Of a stretch of 64,000 bases of DNA, positions 9,961 through 57,990 are shown piece after piece. The notes beneath the pieces were generated by a model. That model saw only the letters and a program-made list of their open reading frames with translations. It was not told where the DNA came from and ran no database searches. Source of the stretch: an uncultured Actinomycetes bacterium (GTDB lineage: Bacteria > Actinomycetota > Thermoleophilia > Gaiellales > Gaiellaceae). The DNA is taken from NCBI GenBank assembly GCA_963746445.1, contig CAVVAW010000008.1, forward strand, positions 102,565-166,564. Reading direction: 5' to 3'. The position numbers and the translations under genes are program-made. The stretch's first letter is position 1, and the number at the start of each line of letters is the position of its first letter.

Positions 9961-10391
9961 ACGGCGGCCCTCCGCACGAGCTCCTTCGGCTCCGGGTACT
10001 CCAGGAGCGCGATCGCGGCCTCTGGATCGAGCCAGCGCGCCTCGACGTGCTCGTGGTCGAGCGTCGGCTCCCACCCCTCGGGGGCCTCGGCCACGAACGG
10101 CCAGACGACGATCCGCTCCGTCCCGGCCGGGAACCGTGCGCGCACCGGTTCGGGGTCGCCCGCGAGGTCGTAGTCGAGCGGATCGCCGAGCTGCTCCGGC
10201 ACGGCGACCAGGCCTGTCTCCTCGAGTAGCTCGCGCGCGGCGGCTGCCGCAGGCTCCTCACCCCAGTCGACGCCACCCGAGACGAGATGCCAGTACCCGA
10301 GCTTCTCCGGCGAGCGCAGGAGAACGAGGTACTCGCCGGCCGGGCGGCGGACCGCGATCGCCACCTCCACCGGACGGCGGTTGCCGCTCAC
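9957..10391 (-). CDS. NUDIX hydrolase
   Basis: 144-aa ORF with Nudix box GGVDWGEEPAAAAARELLEETGL. GTGA overlaps at both ends. Confidence 0.85.
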   Translation of the reverse strand: MSGNRRPVEVAIAVRRPAGEYLVLLRSPEKLGYWHLVSGGVDWGEEPAAAAARELLEETGLVAVPEQLGDPLDYDLAGDPEPVRARFPAGTERIVVWPFVAEAPEGWEPTLDHEHVEARWLDPEAAIALLEYPEPKELVRRAAV

Positions 10392-11458
10392 CCGCGCTCC
10401 TCGAGCGCCGCGAGCATCGCCGCGCCCGTCGACTCCCAGGAGAACCGGGCCGCATGGGCGAGGCCGATCGGGACGAGCTCCTCGCGTCGGGCGACGGCCT
10501 CCCGGATCCCCGCGGCGATCGCCTCGACGTCGAGCGGGTCGACCCGCACCGCCGCGTCACCACAGGCCTCGTCGAGCGAGGGATGCGCCGAGGCGACGAC
10601 GGGCGTGCCGCACGCCATCGCCTCGACGATCGGCATGCCGAACCCCTCGTAGAGCGCGGGATAGACGAGCACCGACGCTCCACGGTAGAGCCTCGCGATC
10701 TCGTCGTCGGGGACGTAGCCGAGGCGCCGGATGCGCGGGTCGGCGAGGTCGGGCCGCTCGCCCCACCCCTCGCCCCCCGCGAGCACGAGCCCGAGCTCTC
10801 CGTCGAGGAGCCGCCACGCCTCGATCAGGCGGGCGAGGTTCTTGCGCGGCTCGATCGTGCCGAGCCCGAGGACGGCGGGACCGCCGAGGTCGGCCGCCGG
10901 GCCTTCCGCACCGAGGCCGTCCGCGAGCCCCGGAGGCGTGTGGACGATCCGCTCCTGCTCGATGCCGAGGGTCGCCGTCAGGTCGGCCGCGGTGAAGCGG
11001 GAGTTCGCGAAGACGACGTCGCAGGTCGCCGCCGCGTTCCTGGCCTTGTGCGTATGCATCGAGACGGTGCGGGCCGTGCACCACTCCGGGTGGTGGAACG
11101 GCACGAGGTCGTGGAAGACCGTCGCGCGCACGCCGCCGCGCTGCGCCGGGTACATCCACTCGCTGAAGACGAAGGCGTCCAGGCGCCCCGCGACGAGCTC
11201 CACGGAGGGCCGCCCGAGGCGGCTCCATCCCGTGCGGAGGGCGTGCGACGCGGGCAGCGGGACCAGCCGGGGCGCGGCCGGGATGTTGTCTAGCGCAGCG
11301 CGGATCGCGACCGGCCCGCGGAGGCTCGTCGGCGCGAACGCGACGAGCTCGTGCCGGTCTCCGGCGGCCGCACACATGCCGGCAAGCGAGCCGCGGATGT
11401 AGTTCCCGATCCCGGTGCGCGGATGGGAGAGCGGCGAGACGTCGACGACGATCCTCAT
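10388..11458 (-). CDS. GT4-family glycosyltransferase
   Basis: MRIVVDVSPLSHPRTGIGNY..., FHDLVP, EPRKN, YEGFGMPIVEAMACGTPVV. Start moved to ATG 11458 because GGGAG lies 5-6 nt upstream. Confidence 0.85.
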   Translation of the reverse strand: MRIVVDVSPLSHPRTGIGNYIRGSLAGMCAAAGDRHELVAFAPTSLRGPVAIRAALDNIPAAPRLVPLPASHALRTGWSRLGRPSVELVAGRLDAFVFSEWMYPAQRGGVRATVFHDLVPFHHPEWCTARTVSMHTHKARNAAATCDVVFANSRFTAADLTATLGIEQERIVHTPPGLADGLGAEGPAADLGGPAVLGLGTIEPRKNLARLIEAWRLLDGELGLVLAGGEGWGERPDLADPRIRRLGYVPDDEIARLYRGASVLVYPALYEGFGMPIVEAMACGTPVVASAHPSLDEACGDAAVRVDPLDVEAIAAGIREAVARREELVPIGLAHAARFSWESTGAAMLAALEERG

Positions 11459-25252: not shown

Positions 25253-25619
25253 TCTCGGGCGTCGCCGCTCCCTCCAGCGCGTCGATCCTCGTCCGGAGCA
25301 GGGCGACCTCTTGCGCGAGCAGCACGTTGTCGTCCGTCAGCTTCGACAGGACGGTCGAGTAGTGGAGGAGGACGGCGATCACGAACATGATCGCAGCGGC
25401 GAACAGGATCGCCGGCGGGTACCCCGACACGCCGAGCCAGCCGGCGATCGTGTTGAGGCCCCCGCGCCAGGCCGAGAGGACGAGGAGCACGAGCCCTGTC
25501 ACGAGCCAGAGCAGGGCGTAGCGCTCCTTGAGGCGCCGTCCGCGGATCAGCTCGAGGACGATCAGGATGAGGATCACGGAGCCGACCGCGGCGGCGATCG
25601 AGATCCGTACGGGCGTCAC
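25218..25619 (-). CDS. DUF2304-family small membrane protein
   Basis: From GTG 25619 (GTGA overlap): 133 aa, LELIRGRRLKERYALLWL..., three TM segments and a C-terminal coiled segment. The usual partner GT2 is immediately upstream. Confidence 0.7.
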   Translation of the reverse strand: MTPVRISIAAAVGSVILILIVLELIRGRRLKERYALLWLVTGLVLLVLSAWRGGLNTIAGWLGVSGYPPAILFAAAIMFVIAVLLHYSTVLSKLTDDNVLLAQEVALLRTRIDALEGAATPEISPTPVEPRAG

Positions 25620-26347
25620 GGCTGCGCCCCCTCCGAGGGAACGGCGTACCGCCTGCCCATCGCGACGAAGAGCGCGAGCGTCACCTTGAACGCGTAGTAG
25701 ACCGAGCGCAGGAAGGTGATCGACGACGAGCCGTGCTCGCGCTCGCGCATGGTGACCGGCACCTCGACGAGCCGGAGCCGGTGCTTGAGGACGAGGACGG
25801 TCGCCTCGACCTCCGGGTAGTCGCTCGGGTAGTCGCGTGCGAAGAGCTCGATCCCCTTCCCGTTCATCGCCTGGAAGCCCGACGTCGTATCGGTCACCCG
25901 CTGGCCCGAGAGGAGCGAGACCAGGCGGGCGAACCACGTGATCCCGAGCCGCCGGTGGAGCGGCGGCCGGTACCCGTCCTCGCCCTCGCGGAACCGCGAG
26001 CCGGTGACGACGTCGGCCTCACCGGACTCGAGCGGCGCGAGCAGCTTCGGGAGCTCGGCGGCGTCGTGCTGACCGTCCCCGTCGAGTCGCACGGCGACGT
26101 CGTACTCACGCTCGAGCGCCCAGCGGAAGCCCGTCTGGACGGCTGCGCCGATGCCGAGGTTGAACGGCAGCCGCACGACGGTCGCGCCGGCGCGCGCCGC
26201 GGCGTCCGCCGTCCCGTCCGACGAGCCATCGTCGACGACCACCACGTCGATCGCCGGGTCGAACTCGACGATCTCCCGGACAACGGCGCCGATGGCCGCT
26301 TCCTCGTCGAACGCGGGGACGACGGCAACGGTCCGCTTTCCGGTCAT
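25616..26347 (-). CDS. GT2 polyprenol-phosphate glycosyltransferase (DPM1/GtrB-like)
   Basis: 243-aa ORF: VAVVPAFDEE, VVVVDDGSSDGT, RLDGDGQHD, TSGFQAMN. Confidence 0.85.
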   Translation of the reverse strand: MTGKRTVAVVPAFDEEAAIGAVVREIVEFDPAIDVVVVDDGSSDGTADAAARAGATVVRLPFNLGIGAAVQTGFRWALEREYDVAVRLDGDGQHDAAELPKLLAPLESGEADVVTGSRFREGEDGYRPPLHRRLGITWFARLVSLLSGQRVTDTTSGFQAMNGKGIELFARDYPSDYPEVEATVLVLKHRLRLVEVPVTMREREHGSSSITFLRSVYYAFKVTLALFVAMGRRYAVPSEGAQP

Positions 26348-27555
26348 ACAGGCACCGCTGCCTCGAGCCCGAGCAGCCGCAGCACCTGGCGCGCGCGATG
26401 GGCGTACGTGTGCTCGTCGAGGACGCGCTCGCGGGCTCGCGCGCCCATCGCTTCCGCCTCGGCGGGATCGTCGAGGAGCGCCCGGTACGCGTCGAGCGCG
26501 CCGTCCGCGTCGTCCACGACCAGGAGCTCGCTGCCCGGCTCGAACCAGCGCTCGAGCCCCGCGTGCGGATTCGAGACGATCGCCGCCCCCGCGGAGGCGA
26601 GCTCGAACGGCCGGCAGGTCGACGAGCCGTCGACGGTCGCGTGCGCTCGGCGGGTCACGTTGAGGTTCACGCGGGCCGCCGAGATCGCCCGCGCGAAGGC
26701 GTTGAACGGCACGTCTCCGATCTCTCGCGCGCGCCCCACGTCGCCCCGGAAGTCGCGTCCGCCGAGCGCGAAGTCGATGCGGGGGTCGCGTCTGCTCGGC
26801 TCACCGACCAGCGCCGCCATCCACTCGCGCCGGAACTTGTCGCCGTAGCCGTAGAAGAAGACGTCGGAGTCCTTCTCGACGGGGAGTGGGCGGAAGAACT
26901 CGGGGTCCGCCGCCCAGAGCACGGCCTCCGCCCGCCGGGCGCCGAGCTCGTGCAGGCGGTCGAGCCCGCCCTCCGAGTTCGAGAGCACCAGGTCGTATTC
27001 CGAAGGATCGGCGCCGTGGTAGTAGTTGAACCCCGTGTCCATGCCGCCGTACTCGGGCAGGCTCATGGGCACGTCGCCGTCGTAGAACACGACCGGGACA
27101 CCGTGGCGCTCGCGGAGGTACTCGGGGATGCCGCGGAAGTGCGCCATGGGCACGGTGAAGACGAGCACCGCGTCGGGGCGCTCGCGCTCGACGAGCCGGT
27201 CGAGGTGGCGGCGCCAGCGCGGGGTGACGACCTTCCAGATCGTCTCGCGCGTCAGCTTGTCGAACGCGCTGTCCTCGGGGCTCTCCTCGATGCGGCGCAG
27301 GTAACGGTCGCCCTTGAGCCGGGCGAGCCCGCCGCGGAGCGCCGCGTAGCTCTCGCCCTCGCGGTACGTGGGATTCGACGCCGTGCGCCACCACGGCGAC
27401 TCGACGGGACGGCCGCGGTACGGCGTCACGACGAGGTCGGCACCCGCCTCGTACAGCCCCTTCCAGAGCTGCCACCACGCGGGCGTGCATCCGTAGCGGA
27501 AGTCGAGGTCGACCGCGGAGGCGACGGCGAGAATGCGGGGAGCACGCACCGGCAC
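26344..27555 (-). CDS. CgeB-like / DUF3880-type glycosyltransferase (Glyco_trans_1_2-like C-terminus)
   Basis: From GTG 27555. The C-terminal VNLNVTRRAHATVDGSSTCRPFELASAGAAIVSN...HTYAHRARQVL matches the CgeB family pattern. The start is moderately uncertain. Confidence 0.7.
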   Translation of the reverse strand: MPVRAPRILAVASAVDLDFRYGCTPAWWQLWKGLYEAGADLVVTPYRGRPVESPWWRTASNPTYREGESYAALRGGLARLKGDRYLRRIEESPEDSAFDKLTRETIWKVVTPRWRRHLDRLVERERPDAVLVFTVPMAHFRGIPEYLRERHGVPVVFYDGDVPMSLPEYGGMDTGFNYYHGADPSEYDLVLSNSEGGLDRLHELGARRAEAVLWAADPEFFRPLPVEKDSDVFFYGYGDKFRREWMAALVGEPSRRDPRIDFALGGRDFRGDVGRAREIGDVPFNAFARAISAARVNLNVTRRAHATVDGSSTCRPFELASAGAAIVSNPHAGLERWFEPGSELLVVDDADGALDAYRALLDDPAEAEAMGARARERVLDEHTYAHRARQVLRLLGLEAAVPV

Positions 27556-27714
27556 GTCCGGAGTGTAGGCGCGGCACCCGGCGGCGCAGCCCTGAGCGGG
27601 CCCACGCGGTGTGGAGAAATCGGCGCTCTTTCGCGACAAACGCCATCTGGTGCTGCGGTCGGCGATTCGCCATCGTGGCAACAGTCATCGTCTTCGACCC
27701 GAAAGGGGTGTGTC

Positions 27715-27870
27715 ATGTTCGACGAGCTCACGGAGGAGCTGCTCGACCTCTCCGCCAGCGTCCGCGGGTACGGCGCGGCGACCTATGCGGTCGTCGACGA
27801 CCAGCCCGGCTGCTGCGGCGGCTGCGGCACGGTCGTCCTCTGCTGCACGTGCACCAAGCTCTGCTGGTGA
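27715..27870 (+). CDS. TOMM/LAP precursor peptide (51 aa, Cys/Thr-rich core)
   Basis: Last 51 codons of shadow ORF 26398..27870: MFDELTEELLDLSASVRGYGAATYAVVDDQPGCCGGCGTVVLCCTCTKLCW. AAAGGGG lies 7 nt upstream of ATG 27715. It sits directly upstream of the C/D/B maturation genes. Confidence 0.8.
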   Translation: MFDELTEELLDLSASVRGYGAATYAVVDDQPGCCGGCGTVVLCCTCTKLCW

Positions 27871-27888
27871 CGGGGGACGAGGCCCGGT

Positions 27889-55954: not shown

Positions 55955-57136
55955 CTACGACCCTGTGATGCGCCGGGGTGGCTCGACGCCGACCTCGAGC
56001 TCGAGCTGCTGGTCGCCGGCGTCCTCCCAAGGCTCGAGCTCGATCCGCTCGCCGAAGAACTCCCAGATCGCGCGACCCGCGGCCATCGTCGGCAGCGCGA
56101 CGAGCACACCGGGGATCCCGTAGAGCGCACCACCGGCGAGGAGCCCGAAGATGACGAGCAGCGGATGGAGCCGGAGCGCGCTCGCCATCACGTTCGGGAC
56201 GACGACGTGCCCCTCGATCTGGTAGATGAAGACGAAGAGCAAGGCGACCCAGAGGACGCCGACCGGATCGACGACGAGCGCGTAGAGCGCAGGCGGGACG
56301 GCCGAGAGCCACGGCCCGATGTAGGGGATCACCTCGACGAACGCCGTCCAGATCCCGAACAGCAGCGCGTACCGCTCTGCGCCCTCGACGAGGCCCGTCG
56401 TGCCGAGGATCCACATCCCGACCCCGGCGCTCGTGCCGATCACCACCGACAGCACCACCTGCCCCTTCACGTATCCCCAGAGCGCGCGCTCGATCCGCTG
56501 GGTCAGCGGCAGGCCGCCCCGCGGCGGGAAGCGGCGGTCGATCACCGCCTCGAGCCGCGGCATGTCGAGCAGCATGTAGATCGCGATCACGATCACGAGG
56601 ACGACGGAGAACAGGAAGAGGATCACCGAGAGCGCTGCGCCCTGGGCGAACGAGATCGCGTCGTGGGCGTAGCCCGAGACGTCGCTCGCGCCGATCGAGT
56701 CGGTCAGGTCGTTGAGCTGCTGCTCGAGCTGGATCCGCTCGAGCCCGTGGTCGTCGAGCCACCGCTGGAGCCGGTCGACCGCGGTCTCGGCGCCCGTCTT
56801 CCCCGTGGCCGCGCTCTCCTGCGAGAAGTACGCGTCGATCCGGTCGCCGGCCGAGCGGGACTCGGAGACGACGACCGTGCCGACCGCGACGAGGAACGCG
56901 ACGAACGCCGTCGCGAAGACCACCGAGACCACCGCCACGGCGGCGCCGCGCGGGAGTCGCAGGCGGGTCAGGTCACGGACGAGCGGGTTCAGCGTGAACG
57001 CGATCACGGCGGACGTGAGGAACAGGAACAGCACGTGTCCGAGCGGCCGCGCGAGCAGAAACACGACGAGCAGAAGCACGGGCAGGACGACGAGCTGGAT
57101 CCAGCGCGGGATCCGAATCGTCGTGTCCTGGCGCAC
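55955..57136 (-). CDS. AI-2E family transporter (PerM/YhhT-like)
   Basis: From GTG 57136: eight TM segments, [30 protein letters not shown]. Confidence 0.85.
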
Positions 57137-57213
57137 GCAGCGATCGTAGCCCCGTCCGTGGCGCGGGACGCATGGCGTGAAGCCCGCTTGCGCGTGCGGT
57201 ACCGTGGGCGCCA

Positions 57214-57990
57214 ATGGCCTCGCCGCGCTCCCGGCAAGCCGCACGCCTGCGCGAACGCAGACGCCGCTCCCAACGGCGTGCCCGCCGACTCGTCCTCCTC
57301 TCCGTGCTGGCGGTGCTGGGCGTCGTCACGCTGCTCTTCACCGCCTTCGGCTCCAGCGGCTCGTCCGGCCCAGCGCCGATCGCGATCGAGACCGTCTCCC
57401 TGGCGGACGCCACGGCCGTCCGGCCGCGGCCGCAGGTGCTCGCGTCGATCGGCAACCTTCGGATACAGCTCCCCGTCGCAGCGGGCGCGCTGACCGCGAT
57501 CGGCTACCACGGGTCGAGCGACGGATCGCTCTCGCTGCAGCCGGTCGGCCGCCAGGCGAACGCAGGGCTGCTGGAGCGGCTCTGGCGGCGAATCGCCGGA
57601 AGCGGACGCGAGTCGCCCCGCTGGTATCAGCTCGAGGGCGGTCCCGCGGGAACGAACGTGCTCGACGTGGGCGCGGCGCCGGGCACGGACGTCTATGCCC
57701 CTGTGAAGGGCTCGGTCATCGCGGTCAGCGACCTCGTCGTGGGAGGGAAGCGCGTCGGCAGCCGCATCGACCTTCGGCCGTCGGAGTCGCCGTCGGTGAT
57801 GGTTTCCGTGATGAACGTCCGGCCCGACCCGTCGATCGCCGTCGGGACCCCCGTGCTCGCAGCCTCGTCGAAGCTCGGCACCGTCGTCGACGTCGCATCC
57901 GTCGAGGAGCAGGCGCTCGCCGCCCACGCACCGGACGGCGGCAACAACGTCTCCGTCAGCGTCTATCCGTCTCCAGGCTCCCTCCCCTGA
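57214..57990 (+). CDS. membrane-anchored protein with degenerate LytM/M23-like domain
   Basis: 258-aa ORF: basic N-terminus, one TM segment, GTDVYAPVKGSVIAV...VGTPVLAASSKLGTVV. I did not see the catalytic His motifs. Confidence 0.5.
   Translation: MASPRSRQAARLRERRRRSQRRARRLVLLSVLAVLGVVTLLFTAFGSSGSSGPAPIAIETVSLADATAVRPRPQVLASIGNLRIQLPVAAGALTAIGYHGSSDGSLSLQPVGRQANAGLLERLWRRIAGSGRESPRWYQLEGGPAGTNVLDVGAAPGTDVYAPVKGSVIAVSDLVVGGKRVGSRIDLRPSESPSVMVSVMNVRPDPSIAVGTPVLAASSKLGTVVDVASVEEQALAAHAPDGGNNVSVSVYPSPGSLP

Follow-up and report, generated by a model that had tools for sequence, protein, structure and literature searches.

The 64,000-nt stretch analysed here (the window), part of contig CAVVAW010000008.1 of an uncultured Gaiellaceae bacterium, contains a 51-codon open reading frame (ORF) directly in front of an operon with a YcaO gene. 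We conclude that this ORF is very probably the structural 'A' gene of a linear azol(in)e-containing peptide (LAP), also classed as a thiazole/oxazole-modified microcin (TOMM), from an actinobacterium of the Gaiella lineage. Judged by sequence, the cluster has the features of a LAP/TOMM cluster: a YcaO-type D protein, an E1/ThiF-like C protein with a region resembling the RiPP recognition element (RRE; RiPPs are peptides made by the ribosome and modified after translation), a SagB-type B protein, and a precursor composed of a leader and a core rich in Cys, Ser and Thr. The precursor belongs to an uncharacterised LAP precursor family that is restricted to Gaiellales and sits in a canonical gene cluster. 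An earlier note on this DNA had proposed a leader-plus-core azole-peptide precursor beside YcaO, and the operon, the conservation and the family all support that proposal. Its description of the peptide is confirmed in sequence: the final 19 of the 51 residues comprise 7 Cys and 3 Thr, CCTCT provides five consecutive cyclisable residues, and AAAGGGG precedes the ATG. Coordinates are given in Table 1.

The 51-codon ORF is a real gene, on the grounds of its codon bias, its position before the C, D and B genes, its conservation and the selection acting on it. In the ORF list the peptide is present only as the tail of a 490-aa ORF (26398–27870, +), the upstream part of which is, as the earlier note had it, antisense to a CgeB-like glycosyltransferase gene (26344–27549, −). 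The small ORF is therefore 'hidden' only from a naive longest-ORF list; the JGI, ENA and NCBI pipelines do annotate it (51 aa, hypothetical protein), and an index of public assemblies has the exact window peptide in 557 blocks. Some public calls carry a spurious N-terminal extension (65–86 aa). We did not accept an in-frame extension of this kind, since upstream it is the DNA that is similar, indel lengths there are not divisible by three, and the frame is a different one in the window.

Long shadow ORFs are found everywhere at 72% GC, and the 51-codon frame might be no gene but the chance tail of one of them, antisense to the glycosyltransferase. A comparable Cys-rich stretch does arise by chance: a six-frame scan of the window returned one further stretch with 7 Cys in 19 aa, at 57084 (−), which we ruled out as a precursor because it is a shadow frame of an AI-2E family transporter gene. 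It makes a useful negative control. Since such a stretch occurs in a 72% GC window, Cys density alone is not decisive and we dropped it as a stand-alone statistic. The other properties of the 51-codon ORF do not fit a chance frame. Its GC content at third codon positions (GC3) is 0.96–0.98, against 0.72 in the upstream shadow part of the 490-aa ORF, and the codon-position bias switches at the start of the small ORF, upstream of which it has the GC1-high, GC3-low signature of an antisense frame. The ORF is placed at the 165-bp divergent intergenic region (27550–27714), in the gap before the operon, and is antisense to no gene; its stop codon is 18 nt from the co-directional operon (C gene start at 27889). 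Conservation includes the start codon and the ribosome-binding site, 18/18 related loci have the ORF, with a ratio of non-synonymous to synonymous changes (pN/pS) of about 0.25–0.3, and hundreds of homologues share the same operon context. These conservation tests already refute a chance frame, to which we assign virtually no probability.

The conservation test was baited with the YcaO protein, not the peptide, and gave 18 loci from species-representative genomes; they come from a pattern-based search and are possibly a biased subset of Gaiellales. All 18 belong to Gaiella sp. or to uncultured Actinomycetes metagenome-assembled genomes (MAGs), with YcaO identities of 55–94%. Conservation next to orthologous YcaO clusters, on which the earlier note had staked its proposal, is present in 18/18: a hidden Markov model (HMM) of the peptide gave exactly one match per locus, always directly upstream of the C gene. 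Seventeen loci include the start, ATG or GTG, preceded by GAAAGGAG or GAAAGGGG at the same spacing; the eighteenth ends before it. The pN/pS ratio is 0.25 over the 25 leader codons and 0.32 over the C-terminal 10 codons, and within the leader third positions vary in 21 of 25 columns, second positions in 9 of 25. The precursor ORF is thus under purifying selection. The entire block, A-C-D-B-(CPBP-ABC)-permease, is syntenic in 18/18 loci. Divergence of YcaO (the D protein) follows that of the neighbouring LysR protein (Spearman 0.86), which fits vertical descent; inheritance at a fixed locus is apparently vertical.

The family is large. A word-indexed search gave 40 homologue clusters, an exhaustive profile search 99 representatives at 50% identity and a second profile search 437 clusters at 90% identity, all with the leader and a Cys-rich tail. 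Where members have an organism name, it is Gaiella sp. or Gaiellaceae bacterium. Over 213 distinct members the leader consensus is a near-invariant MFxELTxELLDLxAxx(R/K)GxxxAx(Y/F)A, also seen in an alignment of 41 homologues, with F2, L5, T6, L9, L10, D11, L12, G18 and A25 conserved in at least 93%. The tails of these 213 members have a median of 6 Cys and are 50% Cys/Ser/Thr; Cys-Trp forms the C-terminus in 90. Within the Gaiella clade the start of the core (C/S, G, C, S/T) is variable and the final (V/I)LCCTCT(T/S)LCW is near-invariant. The conserved leader and variable core expected in the earlier note are therefore seen in the leader and the first half of the core, but not in the almost invariant LCCTCT(T/S)LCW. 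Distant members are ∼ 43 aa long, with cores such as CCSCCCCACIWLCW and only x-[VI]-x-D ahead of the first Cys; some have 7–10 contiguous C/S/T residues. One distant 43-aa member (locus L023) has the same A-C-D-B-CPBP-ABC-permease arrangement at another genomic site, beside rplU-rpmA-obg. No paper in the library that was searched describes this precursor family; the sole related statement is one preprint's generic remark that LAP-type clusters occur in Thermoleophilia MAGs.

Residues 1–25 are predicted to be the conserved recognition part of the precursor. Conservation stops at Ala25; the first Cys comes at residue 33. The boundary between leader and core, and the protease cut, would accordingly lie in residues 26–32 or nearby, a linker whose length varies among homologues. 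A cut after QPG, where the earlier note had drawn the boundary, is plausible and within this range, but is one option only. The acidic N-terminal leader described there is conserved; its helical character is weakly supported, by a single short helix over residues 6–12 in an AlphaFold model. This model is of low confidence (predicted local distance difference test, pLDDT, 48.7); it is compatible with a disordered precursor that folds upon binding, and proves nothing.

Some called products of 86–125 aa outside the window (P0255, P0256 and P0168, from metagenome and MAG contigs) contain the leader twice. After the first copy they read LLLLQQLRL..., as a TGC-repeat Cys run would if read one frame off. 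A frameshift, an assembly error or the gene caller has probably fused tandem precursor genes in these cases, a hint that some relatives encode two precursors.

The operon consists of six genes in ∼ 5.5 kb, in the order A-C-D-B-(CPBP protease + ABC ATPase)-ABC permease. The downstream genes overlap their neighbours by 4 nt, as in translationally coupled operons. C, D and B each exceed the curated family thresholds and keep their signature motifs. C matches TIGR03882, the 'TOMM precursor leader peptide-binding protein'. A profile of 15 C orthologues matches the N-terminal (RRE + E1-like) halves of LynD and TruD (E about 1e-18) and also MccB, its residues 18–81 match the stand-alone RRE protein PbtF (E 3.9e-5), and the CxxC...CxxC zinc-site pattern is invariant among the 15. 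Public calls differ on the start of the C gene, 27889 (313 aa) versus 27979 (283 aa); we favour the long form because residues are invariant from position 7 onwards in the 15 orthologues. The D protein terminates in PHPFP (a PxPxP motif), and the closest solved structures are the YcaO halves of TruD, LynD and MusD. The B protein carries an RFKYG (Lys-Tyr) motif.

The fifth gene encodes a 493-aa fusion of a CPBP (type II CAAX, Rce1-like) protease to an ABC ATPase, with the motifs EEAIWR (86), FAVAH (115) and HSTYN (154), and Walker A as GANGAGKS (240). A regular-expression survey over whole loci was too loose for the short CPBP motifs; positions in the window protein and longer motifs were used instead. 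With tblastn both domains of the fusion are matched in 18/18 loci, and in most of them the match is close to full length. In L023, a distant cluster, the CPBP protease and the ABC ATPase (10114–11414) are separate genes with a 4-nt overlap. The fusion protein is predicted to be leader peptidase and export motor in one, and this joining of the presumed peptidase to the motor suggests that cleavage is coupled to export. The ABC-2 permease would serve export and possibly self-protection. The conserved block holds only C, D, B, CPBP-ABC and permease: no macrocyclase, LanB-type dehydratase, [4+2] cyclase or PatA/G protease is part of it, nor did we find thiopeptide or cyanobactin accessory enzymes in the window cluster.

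By analogy with established TOMM enzymology, we propose that C binds the acidic leader (FxELTxELLDL) through its RRE-like N-terminus. With ATP, the C-D pair would then cyclodehydrate Cys and probably Thr residues of the core to thiazolines and methyloxazolines, and B would oxidize these azolines to azoles, for a maximum of 10 rings and −20 Da per ring. The core is probably laid out as a Gly-spaced N-terminal block, a VVL hydrophobic hinge and the contiguous CCTCT block. The membrane CPBP domain would cut the leader off somewhere past Ala25, after which the fused ABC ATPase and the permease would export the product. A precedent is SagE, the CaaX-type protein of the streptolysin S operon, which is considered to cleave off the leader ahead of export by SagGHI (Molloy 2015, PMC4513790); a review of RiPP proteases (PMC10885120) makes no mention of CAAX/SagE. 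The product should be linear because there are no PatA/PatG proteases and no macrocyclase. For its role, an antibacterial or membrane-active one is our default guess, by analogy.

Several points weigh against assigning the ORF to the LAP class. All genomes involved are metagenome assemblies, and translation, modification and export are read from sequence. Sequence does not tell which ones among the 10 candidate residues become rings, nor at what point the leader is removed. No curated precursor model in NCBIfam or Pfam matches the window peptide in searches down to E ≤ 10, and the peptide and four relatives have no family match in NCBIfam (E ≤ 10) or Pfam (E ≤ 0.01). The AlphaFold model is of low confidence, as described above. 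The leaders of SagA and McbA have an FXXXB motif, which is not strictly present in the window leader, where the position four after Phe2 is Thr6.

Table 1. Positions of the precursor, the operon and other features in the window.
Feature	Position	Strand	Details
Conserved non-coding motif TGTGGA-N3-ATYGGYRC	27610–27626	+	TGTGGAGAAATCGGCGC in the window; ∼ 100 nt upstream of the precursor start
Ribosome-binding site AAAGGGG	27702–27708	+	6-nt spacer to the ATG at 27715, last G at −7
Precursor ORF	27715–27870	+	ATG...TGA, 51 codons; translation MFDELTEELLDLSASVRGYGAATYAVVDDQPGCCGGCGTVVLCCTCTKLCW*
Leader, residues 1–25	27715–27789	+	MFDELTEELLDLSASVRGYGAATYA; (near-)invariant M1 F2 E4 L5 T6 E8 L9 L10 D11 L12 G18 A25 in 213 members
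Acidic linker VVDDQPG, residues 26–32	27790–27810	+	Length and sequence vary among homologues
Predicted core, residues 33–51, and stop codon	27811–27870	+	CCGGCGTVVLCCTCTKLCW; 7 Cys + 3 Thr as candidate azole sites
C protein, E1/ThiF-like YcaO partner, N-terminal RRE-like region	27889–28830	+	TIGR03882, 52.7 bits (cutoff 36.9)
D protein, YcaO cyclodehydratase (SagD family)	28827–30167	+	TIGR03604, 282.7 bits (cutoff 219.25); Pfam YcaO 5e-62
B protein, SagB-type flavin mononucleotide (FMN)-dependent azoline dehydrogenase	30164–31018	+	TIGR03605, 132.9 bits (cutoff 78.4); Nitroreductase domain; GTG start 30164
CPBP (type II CAAX, Rce1-like) protease + ABC ATPase fusion, 493 aa	31015–32496	+	Pfam Rce1-like 83–160, ABC_tran 223–360
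ABC-2 type permease	32493–33227	+	Pfam ABC2_membrane + ABC2_membrane_3; syntenic in 18/18 loci
AI-2E family transporter gene	55955–57244	−	GC3 0.94; Pfam 1.3e-54
Second Cys-rich stretch	57028–57084	−	Shadow frame, GC3 0.74; overlaps the AI-2E family transporter gene

The non-coding DNA upstream of the precursor is also conserved. The motif TGTGGA-N3-ATYGGYRC, whose block can also be rendered TGTGGA-N3-ATCGGCGC, is at the same position in 15 species loci and in 4 near-identical contigs. An alignment of 10 species loci gave further conserved blocks after it within 27550–27714, namely GACATCTGG, ATTTGC and TGGCAAC, and the upstream blocks (27610–27700) are kept among species with proteins diverged to about 60% identity. 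The distant-type clusters L023 and L027 lack the motif in their upstream DNA. It may act as a promoter or operator specific to the lineage. An RNA element was considered and rejected, with no Rfam match and a consensus fold of only −4 kcal/mol; a scan of 27400–28000 found no sigma-70 promoter consensus and no intrinsic terminator.

An operon of two genes with a 4-nt overlap, for a LysR-family regulator and an iron-containing alcohol dehydrogenase (LysR–Fe-ADH; 33234–35200, −), lies downstream of the cluster on the other strand; it directly follows the cluster in all 17 related loci that reach that far. On the other side lies a divergent polysaccharide-type gene set (25616–27549, −, and upstream) with a Glyco_trans_1_2 protein, a GT2 protein, a DUF2304 protein, a 571-aa protein for which no domain hit is recorded, and an epimerase. 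The upstream glycosyltransferase genes are syntenic with the cluster in only 8/18 loci; as they are moreover divergently transcribed, we rejected them as tailoring enzymes. The divergent set is probably unrelated to maturation of the peptide.

The same biosynthesis could yield something other than a sporadic antibiotic: a molecule with a physiological function across the lineage (metal-binding, signalling or envelope-associated) that has been kept vertically in Gaiellales. The cluster occupies the same chromosomal place beside the LysR–Fe-ADH operon in 18 species, with YcaO identities down to 55%, and YcaO divergence tracks that of LysR, as given above. The C-terminal LCCTCT(T/S)LCW is almost invariant in the Gaiella clade, and the exact peptide is very common in soil assemblies (the 557 blocks already mentioned). 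However, the possible bias of the 18 loci bears on this pattern, an ordinary secreted bacteriocin would fit equally well with an exporter of its own and with a core whose N-terminal half varies, and the cluster has no linked genes for metal handling or signalling. We consider a physiological molecule unlikely. A wider proposal is that the cluster is a vertically inherited, near-core trait of Gaiellales, which rank among the most abundant uncultured lineages of soil actinobacteria; its LCCTCTTLCW polyazole would serve physiology (metal/redox, signalling, envelope), and its CPBP/ABC protein would represent a previously undescribed coupling of cleavage and export, analogous but not related to the peptidase-containing ABC transporters discussed below. 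This, too, we consider unlikely.

Within the LAP class, the earlier note had drawn an analogy to streptolysin S- and plantazolicin-type cores. The LAP/TOMM nature stands, but the peptide lacks the defining features of both classes. Streptolysin S-type clusters have discrete C and D proteins, a B protein, an ABC transporter and a CaaX-like protease (Cox 2015, PMC4603692), a parts list that the gene content of the window fits. The class is defined by an N-terminal region of Gly followed by at least 10 contiguous heterocyclisable residues (Cox 2015, PMC4603692; Molloy 2015, PMC4513790). Two family members are labelled 'streptolysin S family bacteriocin protoxin' by JGI, and runs of 7–10 contiguous C/S/T residues are found in some distant members. 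In the window peptide, however, the N-terminal poly-heterocyclisable region is absent and the longest run is 5 residues, at the C-terminus; neither this peptide nor the JGI-labelled members match NCBIfam (E ≤ 10), and the closest annotated D protein found is of plantazolicin type, SagD itself being outside the comparison. A true streptolysin S-type TOMM cytolysin, acting as a membrane-lytic toxin, is in our view quite improbable.

Another reading is a plantazolicin-class peptide, that is an N,N-dimethyl-Arg polyazole with narrow-spectrum antibiotic activity. The closest annotated relative found is encoded on the Corynebacterium tuberculostearicum plasmid NZ_CP073097. Its cluster has C, D and B genes together with an ABC transporter, a SAM (S-adenosylmethionine) methyltransferase and the precursor ...FFEPTAA-RCSCSSSTCCVLCVKK, a content by which we class it as plantazolicin-type. 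The D proteins are 33% identical (196 bits, pairwise E 1e-62) and both end in NHLPHPFP; the B proteins are 34% identical. The core has a similar outline too, with cyclisable residues, the VVL hinge and a CCTCT(T) block, where plantazolicin has cyclisable blocks (two of about 5 residues) parted by nonpolar residues (Cox 2015, PMC4603692), although the first block of the window core is C/S/G-mixed and interrupted by Gly and an extra LCW tail follows CCTCT(T). On the other hand, the class requires a dedicated N-methyltransferase and a core beginning with Arg (Cox 2015, PMC4603692). No methyltransferase is in or beside the operon, in the window or the 18 loci. The core has no initial Arg, and in the window peptide and its clade no Arg stands between Arg17 and the start of the core. 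An FEPxAA motif is missing from the leader, and the window C protein aligns to the Corynebacterium C only in the E1-like half (24% identity); that its N-terminal leader-binding part does not align fits unrelated leaders. Membership of the plantazolicin class is already contradicted by two defining features, and we find it scarcely credible.

The assignment to a LAP precursor family of its own leaves the current understanding of RiPP biosynthesis unchanged; a well-known class is extended to a new lineage. Gaiellales are abundant soil bacteria that have hardly been cultured, and no knowledge exists of the peptides they secrete. The points of some interest are this lineage, the near-invariant C-terminal Cys-Trp polyazole motif, the apparently vertical inheritance at one fixed locus, the CPBP-ABC fusion and the upstream element. 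The compact six-gene operon with its defined precursor is directly expressible, and with the fusion one can test whether leader cleavage and export are coupled. The family's natural core variants, hundreds of them behind one leader, form a library for the substrate tolerance of the C-D-B azole synthetase and for new polyazole antibiotics. No curated model exists for the family; with an HMM built on the leader, annotation pipelines could give these ORFs a name.

Among known systems, the sagA-I clusters share with the window cluster a precursor with a Cys-rich core, SagB-, SagC- and SagD-like (YcaO) proteins, a SagE-like CaaX/CPBP protease and an ABC exporter. They differ in gene order (A-B-C-D in sag, A-C-D-B in the window) and in their separate protease and ATPase, which are fused here. 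The window core has only about 19 residues and no N-terminal heterocyclisable region of at least 10 residues, its precursor has no SagA-type family match, and the host is no pathogen but an actinobacterium that lives free in soil. The LAPs of the plantazolicin/coryneazolicin class resemble the window system in their discrete C, D and B genes with an ABC transporter, in a small precursor (about 45–50 aa) and, in outline, in cyclisable blocks around a short hydrophobic hinge with a CTCT-type run. Their leaders (...FEPxAA) are unrelated to the window leader (MFxELTEELLDL...), and the window cluster, without SAM N-methyltransferase or initial core Arg, has instead the CPBP protease-ABC ATPase fusion and the conserved C-terminal Cys-Trp. 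The window peptide would work like these LAPs and is a member of neither the streptolysin S nor the plantazolicin class.

The fusion is alike in concept, judging by domain architecture, to the peptidase-containing ABC transporters (PCATs) of lantibiotics and bacteriocins, in which a leader peptidase is also joined to an export ATPase. PCATs carry, on an ABC half-transporter, a C39 cysteine protease that is cytosolic, whereas the peptidase of the window is an intramembrane CPBP metalloprotease on an ABC-2 ATPase subunit. For the modifying enzymes, TruD, LynD and MusD are the best structural relatives of both halves, with C corresponding to RRE + E1-like and D to YcaO. In the window C and D are separate proteins and the cluster is without PatA/PatG or a macrocyclase; the likeness of C and D to these enzymes supports the same leader-guided, ATP-dependent cyclodehydration.

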